Below are positions 44,222-62,908 of a stretch of DNA of 64,000 bases, in pieces (position 1 is the first letter of the stretch; each line of letters opens with the position of its first letter). The notes under the pieces were generated by a model. The model did no database searches and was not told the origin of the DNA. It was given only the letters and a program-made list of their open reading frames with translations. The DNA lies in contig JAFQOQ010000009.1 in NCBI GenBank assembly GCA_017403085.1, forward strand, positions 69,066 through 133,065. Direction: 5' to 3'. A program made the translations under genes and the position numbers. The stretch is from Alphaproteobacteria bacterium (GTDB lineage: Bacteria; Pseudomonadota; Alphaproteobacteria; Rs-D84).

Positions 44222-45292
44222 ATGGAAAAACTGGAATTATTATATGCTAAACTGGTTTTTAGGTTAAATACCGAAAAACGTATGTCGATTTGTCGTAAAT
44301 TGGCGTCGTTGTTGCGAAATGATTTTACGTTGATTGATGCGTTGGAACGTCTGGAAATGATAGAATCTAAGAACGGGACAAAGCCAGATGAACCGTTTGC
44401 AATTGTTATGCGCCAGTGGCAGAAAAATCTGGAACGCGGTATGAGTTTTTCAGAGGCGACGCGTGGATGGGTGCCGCAAAATGAAACGCTGTTGGTGACG
44501 TCGGGTAATTTATCTAATTTGGTGATTGCACTGGAAAATGTTGGGCGTGTTGTTGATGGAACGCAACGTATTCGTCGGGCGATGACGTCTGCGATTGCGT
44601 ATCCGCTGTTTCTGTTGGCGCTGACGTTTGGTATTATTATTATGGTGGGATTATATTTGGTGCCACCATTGCGCGATGTTGCAGGCACAGATGTTGTTTG
44701 GCATGGTGTGGCGGCATCGTTGATTTGGGTGTCTGATTTTTCAATTAAGTATTGGTATTGGTTTGCCGTGGGGTTTGCGACGCTGATATCGATAATTTGG
44801 ATTAGTTTGCCAAATTGGTCGGGACGGTTGCGTGTGCTGTTTGATAAGTTGCCACCGTGGAATATATATAAAATACAAATGTCTGTTGGTTGGTTGATGA
44901 GTTTGTCTGCCATGGTTGGTGCCGGGGTCACAATCCCAGATGCAATGCGTATGTTGGCGGATAATGCCAATCGGTATTTGCGTAGTATTCTGGACAGGGC
45001 GCTGCACTTTATTGCCAATGGTGATAATTTGGGTGTGGCACTTAGTCACACAAAGCGACGTTTCCCAGATGATGAAATTATCGGGGACTTGACCATTTAT
45101 GCAGATATGAACGGTTTTGACGATAACTTAAATCAAATATCCAGGGATTATTTGGATGAATCTGTGCGTAAAATGGAAAAGATTTCAAGTGCGCTTAACA
45201 GTTTGGGGATTTTGTTGGTGTCTGCCATAATTGCGTGGGTGGTGCTGGGGACGTTTCAGATGCAGGACCAGATTACAGCAATGTTATCTTAA
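44222..45292 (+). CDS. Type II secretion F family platform protein (PilR-like)
   Basis: LASLL.N, G.SFSEA, AIAYP, three TMs. Confidence 0.85.
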   Translation: MEKLELLYAKLVFRLNTEKRMSICRKLASLLRNDFTLIDALERLEMIESKNGTKPDEPFAIVMRQWQKNLERGMSFSEATRGWVPQNETLLVTSGNLSNLVIALENVGRVVDGTQRIRRAMTSAIAYPLFLLALTFGIIIMVGLYLVPPLRDVAGTDVVWHGVAASLIWVSDFSIKYWYWFAVGFATLISIIWISLPNWSGRLRVLFDKLPPWNIYKIQMSVGWLMSLSAMVGAGVTIPDAMRMLADNANRYLRSILDRALHFIANGDNLGVALSHTKRRFPDDEIIGDLTIYADMNGFDDNLNQISRDYLDESVRKMEKISSALNSLGILLVSAIIAWVVLGTFQMQDQITAMLS

Positions 45293-45435
45293 AAATAAAT
45301 TATAATAATTCATCTACAGCCAAAAACACCGGCTCATGTATGTTTAATACACTACGCCGGTGTTTTTAACTGTATCTAAATCATTCTAATTTATTTTTAC
45401 ACCACGCAAGGGGTGTGGGGAAAATCTTTTATTGT

Positions 45436-57534: not shown

Positions 57535-57608
57535 GCCCTAATAGTCTAGTGGTAAAACACGTCCTTGGTAAGGACGAGTCGCAAGTCCGATTCTTGCTTA
57601 GGGCACCA
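57535..57608 (+). tRNA. tRNA-Thr (GGT)
   Basis: GCCCTAA...CGTCC-TTGGTAA-GGACG...GCAAG-TCCGATT-CTTGC-TTAGGGC-ACCA. Confidence 0.93.
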
Positions 57609-57718
57609 TCCGCTTTCGCTTGCGCTACAGCGAGATTGATTTTGAATAAAATCAAGCGAAGGTGTAGGGTTAGAGAAACGGATGTCGCGCTGTAATGAAC
57701 GTAGTGAATGAAAGCGGA
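57609..57718 (+). repeat. Palindromic structured element between tRNA-Thr and the GIY-YIG gene
   Basis: TCCGCTTTC/GAAAGCGGA termini; TACAGCG/CGCTGTA; TTGATTTT/AAAATCAA. Confidence 0.7.
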
Positions 57719-57725
57719 CTTTTTG

Positions 57726-57965
57726 ATGTTTTATGTTTATCTTTTGCGAAGTATAAATTTCCCAGAACGTTTTTATGTTGGTTGTACAGGTGATTTAAAA
57801 AGACGCTTAAAAGAACATAATGATGGAAAATCGATATATACCAATAAATTTAAACCATGGACCCTGCATGGGTATGTGGCGTTTGATAGTGAAGAGAAAG
57901 CACGGAATTTTGAAAATTTTCTTAAAACAGGTAATGGCAGAATATTTCAAAAGAAATTCTTTTGA
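57726..57965 (+). CDS. Small stand-alone GIY-YIG nuclease
   Basis: FYVYLL...FYVGCT.DL.RRL.EHN.G.S.YT....PW......E..LK.G.G. Confidence 0.9.
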   Translation: MFYVYLLRSINFPERFYVGCTGDLKRRLKEHNDGKSIYTNKFKPWTLHGYVAFDSEEKARNFENFLKTGNGRIFQKKFF

Positions 57966-57987
57966 TTGTATTTTTTTTATAAATTGC

Positions 57988-58016
57988 TTGCCATTGAGAA
58001 AAAAGGTAGATATACT
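57988..58016 (+). promoter_or_regulatory. Sigma70 promoter of the aspS leader
   Basis: TTGCCA-17 bp-TATACT. Confidence 0.75.
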
Positions 58017-58021
58017 CTTGT

Positions 58022-58200
58022 CTGTGAGATTCATCCGTTTTGCGTTGTGATGATATGACTGACAACCATGGAATGACGCAACAGATAAAAAAGTTATAAA
58101 TCAGGGTGGCACCGCGCAGCCGAATTGACTTGCGCCCCTGAAGGTTAACAATCAAATGTGGGTGCCGAAATTCCAAATTTTGTTTTTCGCGCCCGAAATA
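58022..58200 (+). promoter_or_regulatory. T-box riboswitch-like leader of aspS
   Basis: Antiterminator TCAGGG-[TGGCACC]-GCGCAG...TTGCGC-CCCTGA (58101-58141); short upstream stem 58033-58086 with GAC in its loop. Confidence 0.8.
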
Positions 58201-58216
58201 AAAAAAAGGGACCAAA

Positions 58217-59986
58217 ATGTTATCTTTGAAATCAAAGTACAGAACGCATACATGTGGTGAACTAAACACATCTAATGTGGGCGAAAGTGTTGTTTTATCG
58301 GGTTGGGTACATCGCAAACGCGACCACGGGTCATTGATGTTTGTTGACCTGCGTGATAATTACGGTATTACCCAGGTGGTTTTTGACGGTGGTAACGAGG
58401 CGTTGGAAAAAGTACGCCCGGAATCCGTGATTAAGGTTGTTGGCACCGTTGTTGCGCGTGATGCGTCGGCCGTCAATGATAAAATTCCAACCGGTGGTAT
58501 TGAAATTCAGGCGCAATCCTTTGAAGTTTTAACAAACGCAGATATTTTGCCATTCCAGGTATTTGGCGACGATGATTCTGTTGCCGAAGATTTAAGATTA
58601 AAATATCGCTATATCGATTTAAGACGTGAAAGTCTGCACAAAAATATTTTGTTCCGTAATCGCGTGATGAAATTCTTGCGCGATAAAATGTGGGATATGG
58701 GCTTTTCAGAATTCCAGACACCTATTTTGACCGCGTCATCGCCAGAGGGCGCGCGCGACTTTATCGTTCCCAGTCGCAATCATCATGGGATGTTCTATGC
58801 GTTGCCCCAGGCACCACAGCAGTTTAAGCAGTTTATTCAGATTTCTGGGTTTGACCGCTATTTCCAGATTGCGCCATGTTTCCGCGACGAAGATTTGCGT
58901 GCGGACAGATTGCTGGAATTTTATCAGTTGGATTTGGAAATGTCGTTTGTGGACCTGCCAGACATTCAGGCCGTCGGTAATAAATTAATGCCGGAAATGA
59001 TACGCGAATTTGTGCCTGGCGCAAAAATATGTCCGGAAATTCCACACATCCCATTTGACGAAGCGATGCTGAAATACGGTTCAGATAAACCTGATTTGCG
59101 TAATCCAATCATTATTCATGACGTGACGGAAATTTTCCGCGGGTCTGATTTTGGTATTTTTGCAAATGCCATTGAAAATGGCGCCGTTGTGCGTGCAATA
59201 CCCGCACCAAATTCAGCCGATAAACCACGTTCTTGGTTTGATAAATTGGGCGAATTTGCAGTCAAAGAATTAGGACTGGGTGGATTGGGATATATCGTGT
59301 TCGCCGAAGAAGCCAAGGGACCAGTTGCGAAAAAGTTAGATGAGGGGCGCATCGCAAAGTTGCGTGAAATCGCAGGTGATAATTCATCATTGTTCTTTGT
59401 TTGTGATGAAAAAAATACCGCAGCCAAGGCCGCCGGTAAATTGCGCAATAAATTGGGCGATGATTTGGGCCTAATTGACCCAAAAGAATTTAGATTCTGT
59501 TGGATAGAAGAATTCCCATTCTTTGAAGCGGACGAAGAATCACCAACGGGTATTGCATTTACGCATAATCCGTTCTCGTTCCCGATGGCAACGCTGGAAG
59601 AATTGAATACAAAAAATCCATTGGAAATCAAGGCTGCACAATTTGACATGGTATTAAATGGTGCGGAAATCTGCAGTGGTGGCTTGCGAAACTTTAACCC
59701 AGAGGTTATGTTAAAATGCTTTGACATCACCGGGTACAGCGAAGATGTGGTCAAGGAAAAGTTCGGTGGTATGTACACAGCATTCCAATACGGTGCGCCA
59801 CCACACGGTGGTTGTGCGTTCGGTTTGGACAGATTGGTTCAAATTATGTTGGATGAACCAAACCTGCGCCAGGTTGTGATTTTCCCAACCAATCAACGCG
59901 GACAAGACTTGATGATGGGTGCACCAACAACTGTAACAGAAAAGCAGTTGCGCGAAGTACACATTCAGGTTCGCAAAAAGAACTAA
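58217..59986 (+). CDS. aspS: Aspartate--tRNA ligase (probably non-discriminating Asp/Asn)
   Basis: YRTHTCGEL, RKRDHG, LPQAPQQFKQ, CFRDED.RADR, GAPPHGG.AFGLDR. Confidence 0.96.
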   Translation: MLSLKSKYRTHTCGELNTSNVGESVVLSGWVHRKRDHGSLMFVDLRDNYGITQVVFDGGNEALEKVRPESVIKVVGTVVARDASAVNDKIPTGGIEIQAQSFEVLTNADILPFQVFGDDDSVAEDLRLKYRYIDLRRESLHKNILFRNRVMKFLRDKMWDMGFSEFQTPILTASSPEGARDFIVPSRNHHGMFYALPQAPQQFKQFIQISGFDRYFQIAPCFRDEDLRADRLLEFYQLDLEMSFVDLPDIQAVGNKLMPEMIREFVPGAKICPEIPHIPFDEAMLKYGSDKPDLRNPIIIHDVTEIFRGSDFGIFANAIENGAVVRAIPAPNSADKPRSWFDKLGEFAVKELGLGGLGYIVFAEEAKGPVAKKLDEGRIAKLREIAGDNSSLFFVCDEKNTAAKAAGKLRNKLGDDLGLIDPKEFRFCWIEEFPFFEADEESPTGIAFTHNPFSFPMATLEELNTKNPLEIKAAQFDMVLNGAEICSGGLRNFNPEVMLKCFDITGYSEDVVKEKFGGMYTAFQYGAPPHGGCAFGLDRLVQIMLDEPNLRQVVIFPTNQRGQDLMMGAPTTVTEKQLREVHIQVRKKN

Positions 59987-60086: not shown

Positions 60087-60437
60087 ATGCACAAAAATAT
60101 AAATCAATTATGTGATTTGTTGGGACTGAATCAATACCAAAGTGGTAAATTGAAAATGCATTGTGAAAGGTATGATTTTTCCAGACTGCAACAACGTGGT
60201 GGGGTGTTGTATGCACCATATGCAACACACGGCGTGCGACAGTTTATAGAAAAATTATTGCTGGGTGCGCGTGCGGATTTAATTGGAAAAAACACAATGC
60301 TGTTGCGGGCGCAACGTGGTATTCGGTTTTGTGCAAATGGGTATCATTGTGTACGTGCGGGACGATATACATACTATGCAGATGCAATGGGACGTGTAAT
60401 TTCACGTCGTGAATTTATGGAAAATAAATCCAATTAA
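60087..60437 (+). CDS. Hypothetical protein
   Basis: ATG after GAGAG; 116-aa ORF convergent with the AsmA-like gene. Confidence 0.55.
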   Translation: MHKNINQLCDLLGLNQYQSGKLKMHCERYDFSRLQQRGGVLYAPYATHGVRQFIEKLLLGARADLIGKNTMLLRAQRGIRFCANGYHCVRAGRYTYYADAMGRVISRREFMENKSN

Positions 60438-62908
60438 AACTTGTCGTGTGTTTTTACAAATGCACGCATAAATCCCGGGTCAATTTGACGCATTATATCC
60501 GACAGGGAATAAGCACGTGTATTATCGGGCATGATACTTAGTTGTATTGTTGCAGGTGTTGGTGCCGTACCGCGCAATGTTAAATCAAATTCCGCCGTCA
60601 TAAACCCGTCAGTTATTGCAAAACCACCAATACCGTCTGTGTGGCGCATAGATATTTTTGCAGGTGCGGTTGTGATAAAATTACCACGTTCATAGTCGCC
60701 AATAATCTGCAATTGTTTCAATTTTGTTTCACCACCCGTTAATGCGCGCGCCAATGCATATTCTGCGTTGAATGAAGTTATGTTTTCTGCGGACGCATAA
60801 AATTCATCAAAACCAAAGCCCGATATAACACCACCATCAAATGTTAAATCCAGATTCCCGCGCAGATTGTAATATATGTCGTGGGCAATCTGACCATTGG
60901 TGTTCATGGCAATTTGGCCCGTTATCATTGTATCACGAATGTTTAATGGCATATGGTCAGACAGCAACCAACCGTTAATTACAAATTGATTAAGTTGCAC
61001 AAATATTTCATAGTTTGTTTTATCGCGTTCAATTGTGGCAAGCAAATTTCCACGGTCTGCATCCATAATAGAAAATGTTTGGGCGTTTGGTTTTAACGAA
61101 TATACAAAATTCTTGTATTCATTGCCGTTGTAAATCAAACTCTGTGCGGACAGTGCAATTTTAGCAGGTATGTTAAATAATATTAACAAGGGTTCATTTG
61201 TTCTAAATTCCAATTCTGCATAATTATCTATAAACGCTTGATTTATGAATGCATCAATGGACAAAACAGGTGTATGCAATGTGATACTGTCATCGGATGC
61301 ACTGCCAACAAATTCGTAATCACCCAGACGCAATGTCAGGTTTGATATTTTTCCATCTTGGTAAAAACCAGAAATGGTATATGTTGAATCATTGATTGAT
61401 TGTAAATCTATGTTTGGAAACCATGCTTTGAAACTGTTGCCGGTCAAATAAAAATAGTTATCGTATTGGGATAATTGCCAATTACCACTGTACGGTGTAA
61501 ATGTTAACATTCCGCCACGCCATGCAAAATCACCACGATCTGATTTCATAAAGTCGGGCAAGAATGGAATATTTGCCCCCATGAAATCCAAAGTTTTGTT
61601 TTTGGCAAAGTTATATGAAACCCGGGTTTCTTTTTCGTCGATTTCATATATGCCACCGATGTCTGAAAATTGGAAAGAAACGCGTCCGCGCGACCCAAGT
61701 TTTTTGATGTCATTCAAAAATTTCTTTGTTTCTGGCATGGGGGTATCAGACAAAATCGCTATGTCAAATGTATCGCCATCAACGGAAATATTGCCCGATA
61801 TATCGCCATACGAAAACACGGCGCAGTTCCATTTTTGTGGTGTCCCAGAAAACAAGCACATAGAATTTACACCATCAATGGGCATTGTTATCATCAGATT
61901 ATCCGCACCATCCGCGGAAATCGTGCCACCTGTTATGGCAATGTCATCGATGACAACATTTGCAATCTGTAGTTTGTCAGATTCACCAACCGCCTGAATT
62001 CGCAGGTGATTAAATTTGTGCTTGTCAAATTTCAGGTTTCCATAAAAATCAATATTCAGATTGGTTTTATGTATCAATTTGCCCGGATTTTTTAGAAATG
62101 AAAAATCATAATCTATATCTTCGGACACTAATTGAATATTTTTTTCGCCATTGGGTAAAATTTCTATGTTGCCGGAAATGTGGTCGGTATTTATATTGGT
62201 CAGTTTATAACTGTTGCCACCGTTCCATTCAAAATTCGTACTAAGTTTTATTGGACGGGATGTGCGTGGGGCATCAAATCCAAACCAAGAATTTATATCG
62301 TCTGTTTCAATCGAGATATGACCACGAATTGTGCCATCGGAATATATCTGTCCCGTCATATCAAGGTTATTGTTTTTGTTTTCTATGCTGAATGTATCAC
62401 CAGAAAATTCAACATCATATTTGTGATTTGCCGTGCGTATAATTCCATTAAATTCGCCATTGGAAAATTCCGCACGAACAATATGAAATTTACGTCCCAT
62501 AAAGTCTATGTTGCTGTTATAAATTTCAATAGTGTGATTAAAATTTGCGACGGCTAGTTTGTCAATTGTTATATCAGCGTCATAAATAACAACCGCTTTT
62601 TTTAATTCGGCGTGTTCCAGGTTAAAGAAATCACTAAATGGAATAGATAACATCACGGCGCCGATACGGGCGGTTGGTACAATAACATCATGTGCAACAA
62701 TTGTTGCGCCACCAATAAGACTGAAATGAATGTCGCCATCCAATTTTGCCGGCACCGCCATTTGTTCATAAATTGATTTTTCGATTGCAGGGCGAAATTT
62801 ATTCAGGGTTATCATAGGTGGAACAATAATAACGGCCAAAACAAACACACCGATGATGCCCACCAGCGTCCAGAATATTCTGCGTTTATATCTGGGTTTT
62901 AATGCCAT
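60434..62908 (-). CDS. AsmA-like protein
   Basis: N-terminal TM, ..N.FRP.IE...G.I.FSL, long beta-rich body, C-terminal L.G.L.L....G...GF. Confidence 0.7.
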   Translation of the reverse strand: MALKPRYKRRIFWTLVGIIGVFVLAVIIVPPMITLNKFRPAIEKSIYEQMAVPAKLDGDIHFSLIGGATIVAHDVIVPTARIGAVMLSIPFSDFFNLEHAELKKAVVIYDADITIDKLAVANFNHTIEIYNSNIDFMGRKFHIVRAEFSNGEFNGIIRTANHKYDVEFSGDTFSIENKNNNLDMTGQIYSDGTIRGHISIETDDINSWFGFDAPRTSRPIKLSTNFEWNGGNSYKLTNINTDHISGNIEILPNGEKNIQLVSEDIDYDFSFLKNPGKLIHKTNLNIDFYGNLKFDKHKFNHLRIQAVGESDKLQIANVVIDDIAITGGTISADGADNLMITMPIDGVNSMCLFSGTPQKWNCAVFSYGDISGNISVDGDTFDIAILSDTPMPETKKFLNDIKKLGSRGRVSFQFSDIGGIYEIDEKETRVSYNFAKNKTLDFMGANIPFLPDFMKSDRGDFAWRGGMLTFTPYSGNWQLSQYDNYFYLTGNSFKAWFPNIDLQSINDSTYTISGFYQDGKISNLTLRLGDYEFVGSASDDSITLHTPVLSIDAFINQAFIDNYAELEFRTNEPLLILFNIPAKIALSAQSLIYNGNEYKNFVYSLKPNAQTFSIMDADRGNLLATIERDKTNYEIFVQLNQFVINGWLLSDHMPLNIRDTMITGQIAMNTNGQIAHDIYYNLRGNLDLTFDGGVISGFGFDEFYASAENITSFNAEYALARALTGGETKLKQLQIIGDYERGNFITTAPAKISMRHTDGIGGFAITDGFMTAEFDLTLRGTAPTPATIQLSIMPDNTRAYSLSDIMRQIDPGFMRAFVKTHDKF

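Follow-up and report, generated by a model that had tools for sequence, protein, structure and literature searches.

The 5' leader of aspS, the gene of the aspartyl-tRNA synthetase (AspRS), was analysed in a 64,000-nucleotide (nt) stretch of DNA from Alphaproteobacteria bacterium of the GTDB lineage Rs-D84 (assembly GCA_017403085.1, contig JAFQOQ010000009.1, positions 69,066 to 133,065 of the forward strand), which is referred to as the window and whose positions are used throughout. This leader is probably a reduced T-box riboswitch that was derived from a longer form, makes two contacts with tRNA and most likely acts on translation. By every sequence-level test run it is T-box-like, and on these grounds we regard it as a genuine T-box relative under strong selection. 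Several hallmarks of the curated family are absent, namely the elbow platform, Stem III, the G.U pair and a score at Rfam's gathering level. The data show that the leader is homologous to T-boxes, conserved and covarying, that it fits the genome's tRNAs, how it is distributed, and that the extra domains are absent.

Identity and conservation of the aspS leader

A search of the whole genome by E-value with the Rfam T-box model RF00230, proposed as a check in an earlier note that had been made from the letters of this DNA alone, returned the aspS leader with 38.9 bits (E-value 1.6e-7), which is a match but not one at the gathering level; at that level Rfam reported three tRNAs and no T-box over the window. 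When only a short slice of the leader was searched in E-value mode the score was 23.1 bits. High posterior probabilities in the Rfam alignment were confined to the antiterminator (AGGGUGGCACCGCG...CGCCCCU), and only about positions 180 to 219 of the model were aligned with confidence. The second match in the genome (contig C32, 26.1 bits) was also located before aspS; this copy of the leader has diverged but is composed of the same parts. The folding energy of the leader was unremarkable (z = -0.87; 41 of 200 shuffled sequences folded equally well).

Pairing and covariation statistics were calculated from 30 aligned leaders, and motif counts were obtained from 55 distinct leaders, 54 of which were parsed. 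Standard pairs were formed in 92.3% of the alignment cells as compared to 78.0% in shuffles (reached by 0 of 500), 14 of the 22 base pairs varied on both sides, and compensatory changes occurred in every helix. The covariation score was 0.491 versus 0.208 for shuffled alignments (likewise reached by 0 of 500) and at most 0.127 when the pairing was slid. The C-stem of the Stem I hairpin was paired in 95.3% of cells, with all 5 pairs varying on both sides, the NC-stem in 90.0%, and the antiterminator helices A1 and A2 in 93.3% and 95.0%, each with 3 pairs that vary on both sides. The conservation of the bulge and of the GAC loop, which the earlier note had left to be checked in relatives, was found in both parts: the T-box bulge UGGCACC was identical in 54 of 54 leaders, and the specifier was GAC in 48 and AAC in 6 of them, the next base always being a purine (A or G). 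The kink-turn (K-turn) was recognized by sequence and position only, with UGA in 53 and GA in 52 of the 54 leaders. The first NC-stem pair above the G.A pairs was non-standard in 9 of 30 leaders, and non-standard pairs are common at that K-turn position. Within the linker between Stem I and A1 the AAG and AA were invariant or nearly so in the aligned leaders.

The genome's tRNA-Asp (anticodon GTC) and both of its tRNA-Asn (GTT) end in G-CCA; this bears out the pairing proposed in the earlier note, and the UGGC of the bulge fits, as judged from the sequences, G73 of both tRNA-Asp and tRNA-Asn. An asnS gene was not found in the genome (92% complete), the best score being 90.7 bits against a cut-off of 342.6 bits, and gatB was present at 481 bits. 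Since no asnS reached the cut-off and gatB is present, the AspRS must, on this gene content, be non-discriminating and would charge tRNA-Asp as well as tRNA-Asn. The charging of both tRNAs by one AspRS would also account for the drift of the specifier between GAC and AAC alone; the expectation that it should follow the amino acid in relatives agrees with these two codons being the only ones seen, within a one-gene regulon, and the relatives with AAC would therefore sense tRNA-Asn. The core of the apical loop, CUGACAA, has the layout of an anticodon loop, and its UGACA is complementary to positions 33-37 of tRNA-Asp (UGUCA), which suggests a contact of more than three pairs between specifier loop and anticodon loop.

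The layout of the leader is given in Table 1. The antiterminator claimed in the earlier note was recovered at its positions with A1, bulge and A2, the Rfam alignment and covariation being in agreement, and the promoter it had placed upstream was present as judged by a scan alone. This consensus scan yielded 4 promoter-like sites in 57600-58400 as compared to 2.0 +/- 1.1 in shuffles, and by extrapolation from the candidate promoter the leader transcript would start near 58023. Two of the earlier measurements had to be revised: the gap between hairpin and T-box is short, as claimed, but comprises 19 nt (58081 to 58101) and not about 14 nt, and the internal hairpin exists but has the strands 58160-66/58188-94 instead of 58160-70/58185-94. 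The tRNA-sensor portion amounts to 102 nt (58040-58141). Around the Shine-Dalgarno sequence (SD) and the start codon, AAAGGGACCAAAATG was kept in most relatives. The aspS product matched the Pfam domain tRNA-synt_2 at 3.3e-97 and in addition the OB and GAD domains.

Table 1. Features of the aspS leader in the window.
Feature	Positions	Strand	Sequence, partner or basis
Sigma-70-like promoter	57988-58016	+	TTGCCA-17 nt-TATACT; consensus scan only, 10/12 positions matched
Ultrashort Stem I hairpin	58040-58081	+	Alignment, pairing and covariation of relatives' leaders
C-stem, 9 base pairs (bp)	58040-48 with 58073-81	+	TTGCGTTGT with ATGACGCAA
K-turn-like GA motif	58049-53 opposite 58071-72	+	GAUGA opposite GA (GA 58052-53 facing GA)
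NC-stem, 4 bp	58054-57 with 58067-70	+	
Apical loop, 9 nt	58058-66	+	ACUGACAAC
Specifier and following purine	58061-64	+	GAC (Asp), then conserved purine A; within CUGACAA core
Linker, 19 nt	58082-58100	+	CAGAU-AAAAAAG-UUAU-AAA
Linker, purine string	58087-93		AAAAAAG
Linker, expected place of Stem III	58094-97		UUAU
Linker, 3' end	58098-100		AAA
T-box antiterminator or antisequestrator	58101-58141	+	Rfam alignment and covariation
Helix A1	58101-06 with 58136-41	+	UCAGGG with CCCUGA
T-box bulge, 7 nt	58107-13	+	UGGCACC
Helix A2	58114-19 with 58130-35	+	GCGCAG with UUGCGC
Downstream hairpin H3	58160-58194	+	5' strand GGGUGCC 58160-66, 3' strand CGCGCCC 58188-94
H5, in 5' strand of H3	58161-67		GGUGCCG, exact complement of T-box bulge
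H3 loop	58172-74 (UCC)		UCC and U-run; A-run 3' of H3
Shine-Dalgarno sequence	58206-10	+	AAGGG (AGGG 58207-10)
Start codon of aspS	58217-19	+	ATG
aspS	58217-59986	+	Bacterial-type aspartyl-tRNA synthetase, 589 amino acids (aa); Pfam

Several further observations were made in and around the leader. In L012, L021, L022, L023, L026, L103, L112 and L115 the A2 loop AAUCUUA and the UAAGAUU that follows the T-box form a perfect 7-bp complement, which could be a pseudoknot or an alternative helix; the window is without it. Between tRNA-Thr(GGT) at 57535-57608 and the aspS promoter lies a single open reading frame (ORF) of 85 aa (57708-57965, + strand) with a GIY-YIG nuclease domain (Pfam 2.9e-12), which may be left over from a homing endonuclease or another mobile element beside a tRNA gene. 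An ORF of 824 aa (60434-62908, - strand) has an N-terminal match to the AsmA family that is weak and does not reach the Pfam cut-off (E-value 5.6e-6); this agrees with a diderm envelope. At about 45290-45415 of the window (C5:114355-114480) lies a dispersed repeat about 110 nt long, with copies on C11, C15, C18 and C32 that are 75-98% identical; it matches in both orientations, and hence has internal inverted symmetry, and looks like a miniature inverted-repeat transposable element or a repetitive extragenic palindrome.

Distribution, longer relatives and missing domains

The closest AspRS relatives were found in metagenome-assembled genomes from animal guts named Candidatus Enterousia or 'Alphaproteobacteria bacterium'; as far as described in the cited source, Enterousia belongs to the GTDB order and family Rs-D84 and has genomes near 1 Mb (PMC12306168). 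Of the 30 loci among L003-L033 for which upstream sequence was available, 29 have TGGCACC about 100 nt ahead of the ATG, L031 being the exception; at that place it was found in 0 of the 49 loci L034-L082, in which AspRS identity was 60% or lower. A covariance model (R1), which was built here from the 30 leaders, matched in its own genome only the two aspS leaders (107.8 and 105.4 bits; next match 12.6 bits). Within the GTDB family it matched 138 of 151 genomes and 14 of 18 genera, nearly always as a single copy, with two leaders per genome only in G000 and G018. In the other families of the order R1 gave weak matches in 1/4 (f2), 2/2 (f5) and 1/3 (f6) genomes and none in 0/19 (f3) and 0/1 (f4). 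Using RF00230, long forms were detected in two (genera g13 and g14) of five R1-negative genomes of the family; elsewhere in the class, with one genome per other family, 1 of 119 genomes was positive (G284), and elsewhere in the phylum 0 of 150. T-boxes are otherwise almost absent from the sampled Alphaproteobacteria and Pseudomonadota.

The literature on T-box riboswitches in Alphaproteobacteria contained nothing on such leaders by title or abstract, and the supplementary tables or website of TBDB could list such leaders; riboswitches were unmentioned in the part of the Enterousia literature covered. According to the sections of the TBDB paper used here, its class II model was applied only to Actinobacteria (PMC7778990).

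With regard to the second leader copy, the segment C32:8784-20306 matches C5:125413-136979 (window about 56348-67914, past the window end) over about 11.5 kb, including aspS and its leader, with 68-82% nucleotide identity and in rearranged order. This block is either derived from a second Enterousia-like organism in the bin (contamination 3.96%) or an old segmental duplication.

Longer forms of the leader precede aspS in L116 and L117 (family f5), L119 (f2), L123 and L124 (genus g2, within the same family as the window), L125 (a further alphaproteobacterial family) and L127 (g13); in L128 (g14) the gene that follows is another class-IIb synthetase gene. The same short K-turn Stem I, a Stem II with AGUAGAA or UUAGAAC, CGGGUAAGCCCGUUA, mostly another hairpin, and the T-box are common to all eight, in this order. 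In L125 Rfam aligned parts to Stem II, the IIA/B pseudoknot and Stem III, and 78 Stem I positions were deleted. Shorter series members were present as well, L121 retaining just a Stem III-like hairpin and L033/L122 two small hairpins. L127 and L128 have CGUCC, that is a G.U pair at the base of A2. The T-box precedes a shorter class-IIb synthetase gene (434-447+ aa) in L118 (G162), L120 (G045) and L128 (G013), with GAC or AAC as specifier; this product, with the N-termini MKNYPKLK..., MKTKRTHIAEIP... and MILRTHIAEIP..., could be an AspRS of archaeal type or an enzyme resembling AsnRS.

Because sister genera and families carry the longer form, the form in the window looks reduced and not independently invented. 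From outgroup parsimony, with no rooted tree, it looks like the end of a reduction series that started from a layout like that of actinobacterial ileS leaders. The earlier note's minimal T-box in an unexpected lineage is upheld in so far as the host is alphaproteobacterial and the form reduced, but not as an isolated clade. The AspRS itself is closest to those of other Alphaproteobacteria at 55-60% identity, and the aspS gene therefore looks native.

Only four pairs separate the K-turn from the 9-nt loop in which Stem I of the window ends, and the elbow platform is absent. Neither the window nor any of the 30 aligned leaders has a Stem II with its S-turn or the IIA/B pseudoknot, and in place of Stem III the 19 nt between Stem I and A1 keep the purines and form no helix. 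In 54 leaders the K-turn GA and the bulge were a median of 34 nt apart (range 34-56), so that Stem II, IIA/B and Stem III have no room, as had been claimed before. A purine string equivalent to that of the linker, flanking Stem III, is described in the consulted part of a study as the linchpin of 3'-end sensing (PMC12647780), and the linker string may be homologous to it. In the relevant passages of a review (PMC7583486), a short Stem I is said to require Stem II, the IIA/B pseudoknot and Stem III, only strong G/C codons can dispense with Stem II, an antiterminator without Stem III showed no appreciable tRNA binding, and the 3'-aminoacyl group is sensed mainly through a G.U pair at the base of A2.

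Candidate output and competing explanations

We infer tRNA binding, charge sensing and the entire output pathway from the features described above. A terminator-like site, i.e., a G+C-rich stem followed by a T-run, was not found in the leader by a scan of the + strand, in accordance with the earlier note, which had also proposed control of translation through pairing of CCCT with the AGGG of the SD. Translational control in general is still the likelier output, and we hold it with moderate confidence. The specific pairing is weak and was not adopted: it comprises 3-4 bp only, and a change of A1 to CGGG/CCCG is not followed by the SD.

Attention is directed instead to hairpin H3. It was paired in 84.6% of cells versus 81.2% in shuffles (0 of 500) and 41-50% when slid, with a nearly invariant 5' strand and a 3' strand that varies by 0.4-1.6 bits per column. 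Within the 5' strand the sequence GGUGCCR (H5) complements the whole bulge with 7 of 7 bp in 51 of 53 leaders. In L123 (genus g2) the SD itself reads GGUGCCA and is the exact complement of the bulge, and the SD reads GGUGYY in L033, L118, L120 and L121.

These features suggest a relay in which two tRNA contacts would be kept, namely the GAC in the anticodon-loop-like loop above the K-turn and the UGGC, which would pair with the GCCA 3' end. Without uncharged tRNA, GGUGCCR would pair with the bulge and thereby free the C/U-rich 3' half of H3, which would occlude the SD; once uncharged tRNA takes the bulge, GGUGCCR would close H3 and the SD would be exposed. Displacement of a cis-acting mimic of the acceptor end by the tRNA 3' end, followed by closing of H3 and opening of the SD, is the likeliest model, yet taken alone it is possible rather than probable.

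Constrained folding ensembles were calculated for 53 leaders, and means are reported. When the T-box was formed the probability of the SD being unpaired was 0.74 at an ensemble energy of -32.2 kcal/mol; with the bulge paired to H5 it was 0.34 at -30.9 kcal/mol, and without constraint 0.42 at -33.7 kcal/mol. The T-box state and the bulge:H5 state accordingly differ by just 1.3 kcal/mol on average.

Other pairings were considered and discarded. A dedicated sequestrator, consisting of UCC:GGG and the U-run with the A-run, forms in the window when H5 is blocked, yet its occlusion of the SD was not above that of dinucleotide shuffles; native leaders were in the lowest tenth of their own shuffles in 9 of 53 cases, and the UCC was in the loop in 31 of 53 leaders. 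Pairing of the T-box 3' strand GCGCCC with H5, in the style of a classical terminator, is unlikely at -25.8 as compared to -32.2 kcal/mol for the T-box state. Pairing of the SD with codons 2-4, which appeared in unconstrained folds including 12 nt of coding sequence, consisted mostly of A-U and G.U pairs and was judged uninformative. RNAalifold found almost nothing in the leaders (-1.2 kcal/mol). The RNA runs contained at most 0.13 of the sampled words, in contigs that were mostly 90-95% alike and hence from relatives, and gave no starts, ends or strand; one RNA contig, from another organism, skips 58117-58202 and resembles L007, a leader without H3.

A number of these results weigh against a functional, translational two-contact T-box. 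The score of 38.9 bits, and of 26.1 bits for the second copy, is far under the RF00230 gathering score of 93, and the leaders are phylogenetically related, so that the counts are not independent. At the base of A2 all 54 leaders have a G-C pair in place of the conserved G.U wobble, and charge discrimination is uncertain because this sensor pair is missing; by current rules the leader RNA should bind tRNA poorly. With regard to the output, the unconstrained optimum already holds the T-box and H3, with the SD free in the minimum-free-energy state, and a default OFF state is consequently not predicted by secondary structure alone. Occlusion of the SD without H5 was 0.28 in native leaders versus 0.33 in shuffled ones, with 29 of 53 leaders below their own shuffle mean, and L007 does without H3 altogether.

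The competing explanation that survives best retains the same sensor and couples it to a non-translational output, i.e., premature termination that is Rho-dependent or occurs at an atypical site, or an effect on mRNA stability. We consider it improbable. It would accommodate the failure of the specific sequestrator in the shuffle control and the conservation of H3 although the SD is in neither strand, and most T-boxes are transcriptional according to the consulted part of the TBDB paper (PMC7778990). However, there is no G+C-rich stem with T-run on the + strand of the leader, H3 is followed by an A-run, and the distance from the T-box to the ATG is kept at about 100 nt. Furthermore, a truncated Stem I is typical of translational T-boxes in the review's account (PMC7583486), and terminators are rarely used by riboswitches of Pseudomonadota as stated in a portion of another source (PMC12452182).

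Loss of Stem II, IIA/B, Stem III and the G.U sensor pair would also be expected of a T-box relic decaying in a shrinking genome, which no longer senses tRNA and acts as a constitutive structured 5' leader. Such deletions abolish binding according to the passages of the review cited above (PMC7583486), and the SD being free in the minimum-free-energy state points in the same direction. Against decay, bulge, specifier loop, K-turn and purine string are kept over 54 distinct leaders with AspRS identity down to about 69%, compensatory changes maintain all helices, and the specifier varies only between the two codons whose tRNAs the AspRS must charge; in a genome of about 1 Mb, moreover, erosion or deletion of a relic would be expected. 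A mere relic is for these reasons quite improbable.

Autoregulation of the AspRS by a tRNA-like hairpin in its own leader would resemble the E. coli thrS system, in which ThrRS autoregulates through such a hairpin. In size and U-purine layout the apical loop resembles an anticodon loop, but it holds the codon GAC and not the anticodon GUC, and the T-box bulge complements the acceptor end instead of mimicking it; this reading was rejected as very improbable. Least probable of all, and likewise rejected, is leader-peptide attenuation by a ribosome translating the ORF 58055-58099 (MTDNHGMTQQIKKL; codons 3 and 4 are GAC-AAC), since an in-frame ATG or GTG stands two codons before the specifier in 45 of 54 leaders but GCG, ACG or CCG in the other 9, as helix covariation predicts, length (8 to 30 residues or more) and stop position vary, no SD precedes the ORF, and the invariant T-box bulge would be left unexplained.

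The reduced two-contact T-box is thus retained as the preferred explanation, and a bolder version of it may be formulated, which we regard as unlikely as a whole. Here, a T-box with two contacts would work without elbow platform, Stem II, IIA/B, Stem III and G.U sensor; two devices would make up for the missing parts. CUGACAA, as a pre-organized hairpin resembling an anticodon loop, would kiss the anticodon loop of the tRNA, and GGUGCCR would act as a built-in cis mimic of GCCA that holds the bulge and gives way to uncharged tRNA. In sister lineages the competitor would be the SD itself, and the tRNA 3' end and the ribosome-binding site would compete directly for the bulge, whose CACC resembles the anti-SD of 16S rRNA.

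Significance and comparison with known T-boxes

T-boxes are the textbook example of one structured RNA reading another. According to recent structural work the tRNA cannot be held by a truncated Stem I that lacks Stem II and the pseudoknot, nor by an antiterminator that lacks Stem III; the present leader would be a natural sensor of about 100 nt without all of these, and selection maintains it in considerably more than a hundred species of an alphaproteobacterial family from the gut. Should the leader prove to bind tRNA, a true minimal T-box would be defined, a compact scaffold for engineered tRNA-responsive switches would become available, and a graded natural series (I+II+IIA/B+III, I+III, I alone) would allow the role of each domain to be tested. 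It would extend T-box regulation to Alphaproteobacteria, where in genomes of about 1 Mb a single T-box would guard the one enzyme that charges both tRNA-Asp and tRNA-Asn.

T-boxes of ileS with an intermediate or 'ultrashort' Stem I were reportedly described by Sherwood et al. in 2015. As far as the consulted sections describe them, the translational (class II) ileS T-boxes of Actinobacteria (PMC7583486; M. tuberculosis ileS, PMC12647780) share with the window the K-turn, a truncated Stem I without elbow platform, a discriminator core with a 7-nt bulge and a likely control of the ribosome-binding site. Their full layout (Stem II with AGUA, IIA/B with CCGUUA, and Stem III) is shared by the long forms L116, L119, L123-L125 and L127. 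In contrast, the window is without Stem II, IIA/B and Stem III, has G-C instead of G.U at the base of A2 and an additional relay hairpin before the SD, is directed at Asp/Asn and not Ile, and occurs in an alphaproteobacterial host.

The glyQS and glyQ T-boxes likewise combine a K-turn Stem I, a single-stranded linker and a discriminator and do without Stem II, following the description in parts of the review (PMC7583486). They differ in their long Stem I with elbow platform, in having kept Stem III, in the G/C-only codon GGC and in acting by transcription termination, whereas the codon of the window is GAC and in relatives even AAC. With the canonical class I aminoacyl-tRNA synthetase leaders of Bacillota, including those of aspS (RF00230), the window has in common the T-box sequence AGGGUGGNACCGCG, the rule relating UGGN to the discriminator base, an amino-acid specifier followed by a purine, and the GA motif; unlike them it has no terminator, and only about positions 180 to 219 of RF00230 are aligned confidently.

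An older survey, in the portion concerned, lists T-boxes in Proteobacteria only before leuA of Geobacter sulfurreducens and Pelobacter carbinolicus (PMC2494555). These also lie outside the Gram-positive phyla, but as presented there they are typical T-boxes of a biosynthetic gene in organisms then assigned to the Deltaproteobacteria (PMC2494555), whereas the window contains the leader of an aminoacyl-tRNA synthetase gene in Alphaproteobacteria that is kept across a whole family.

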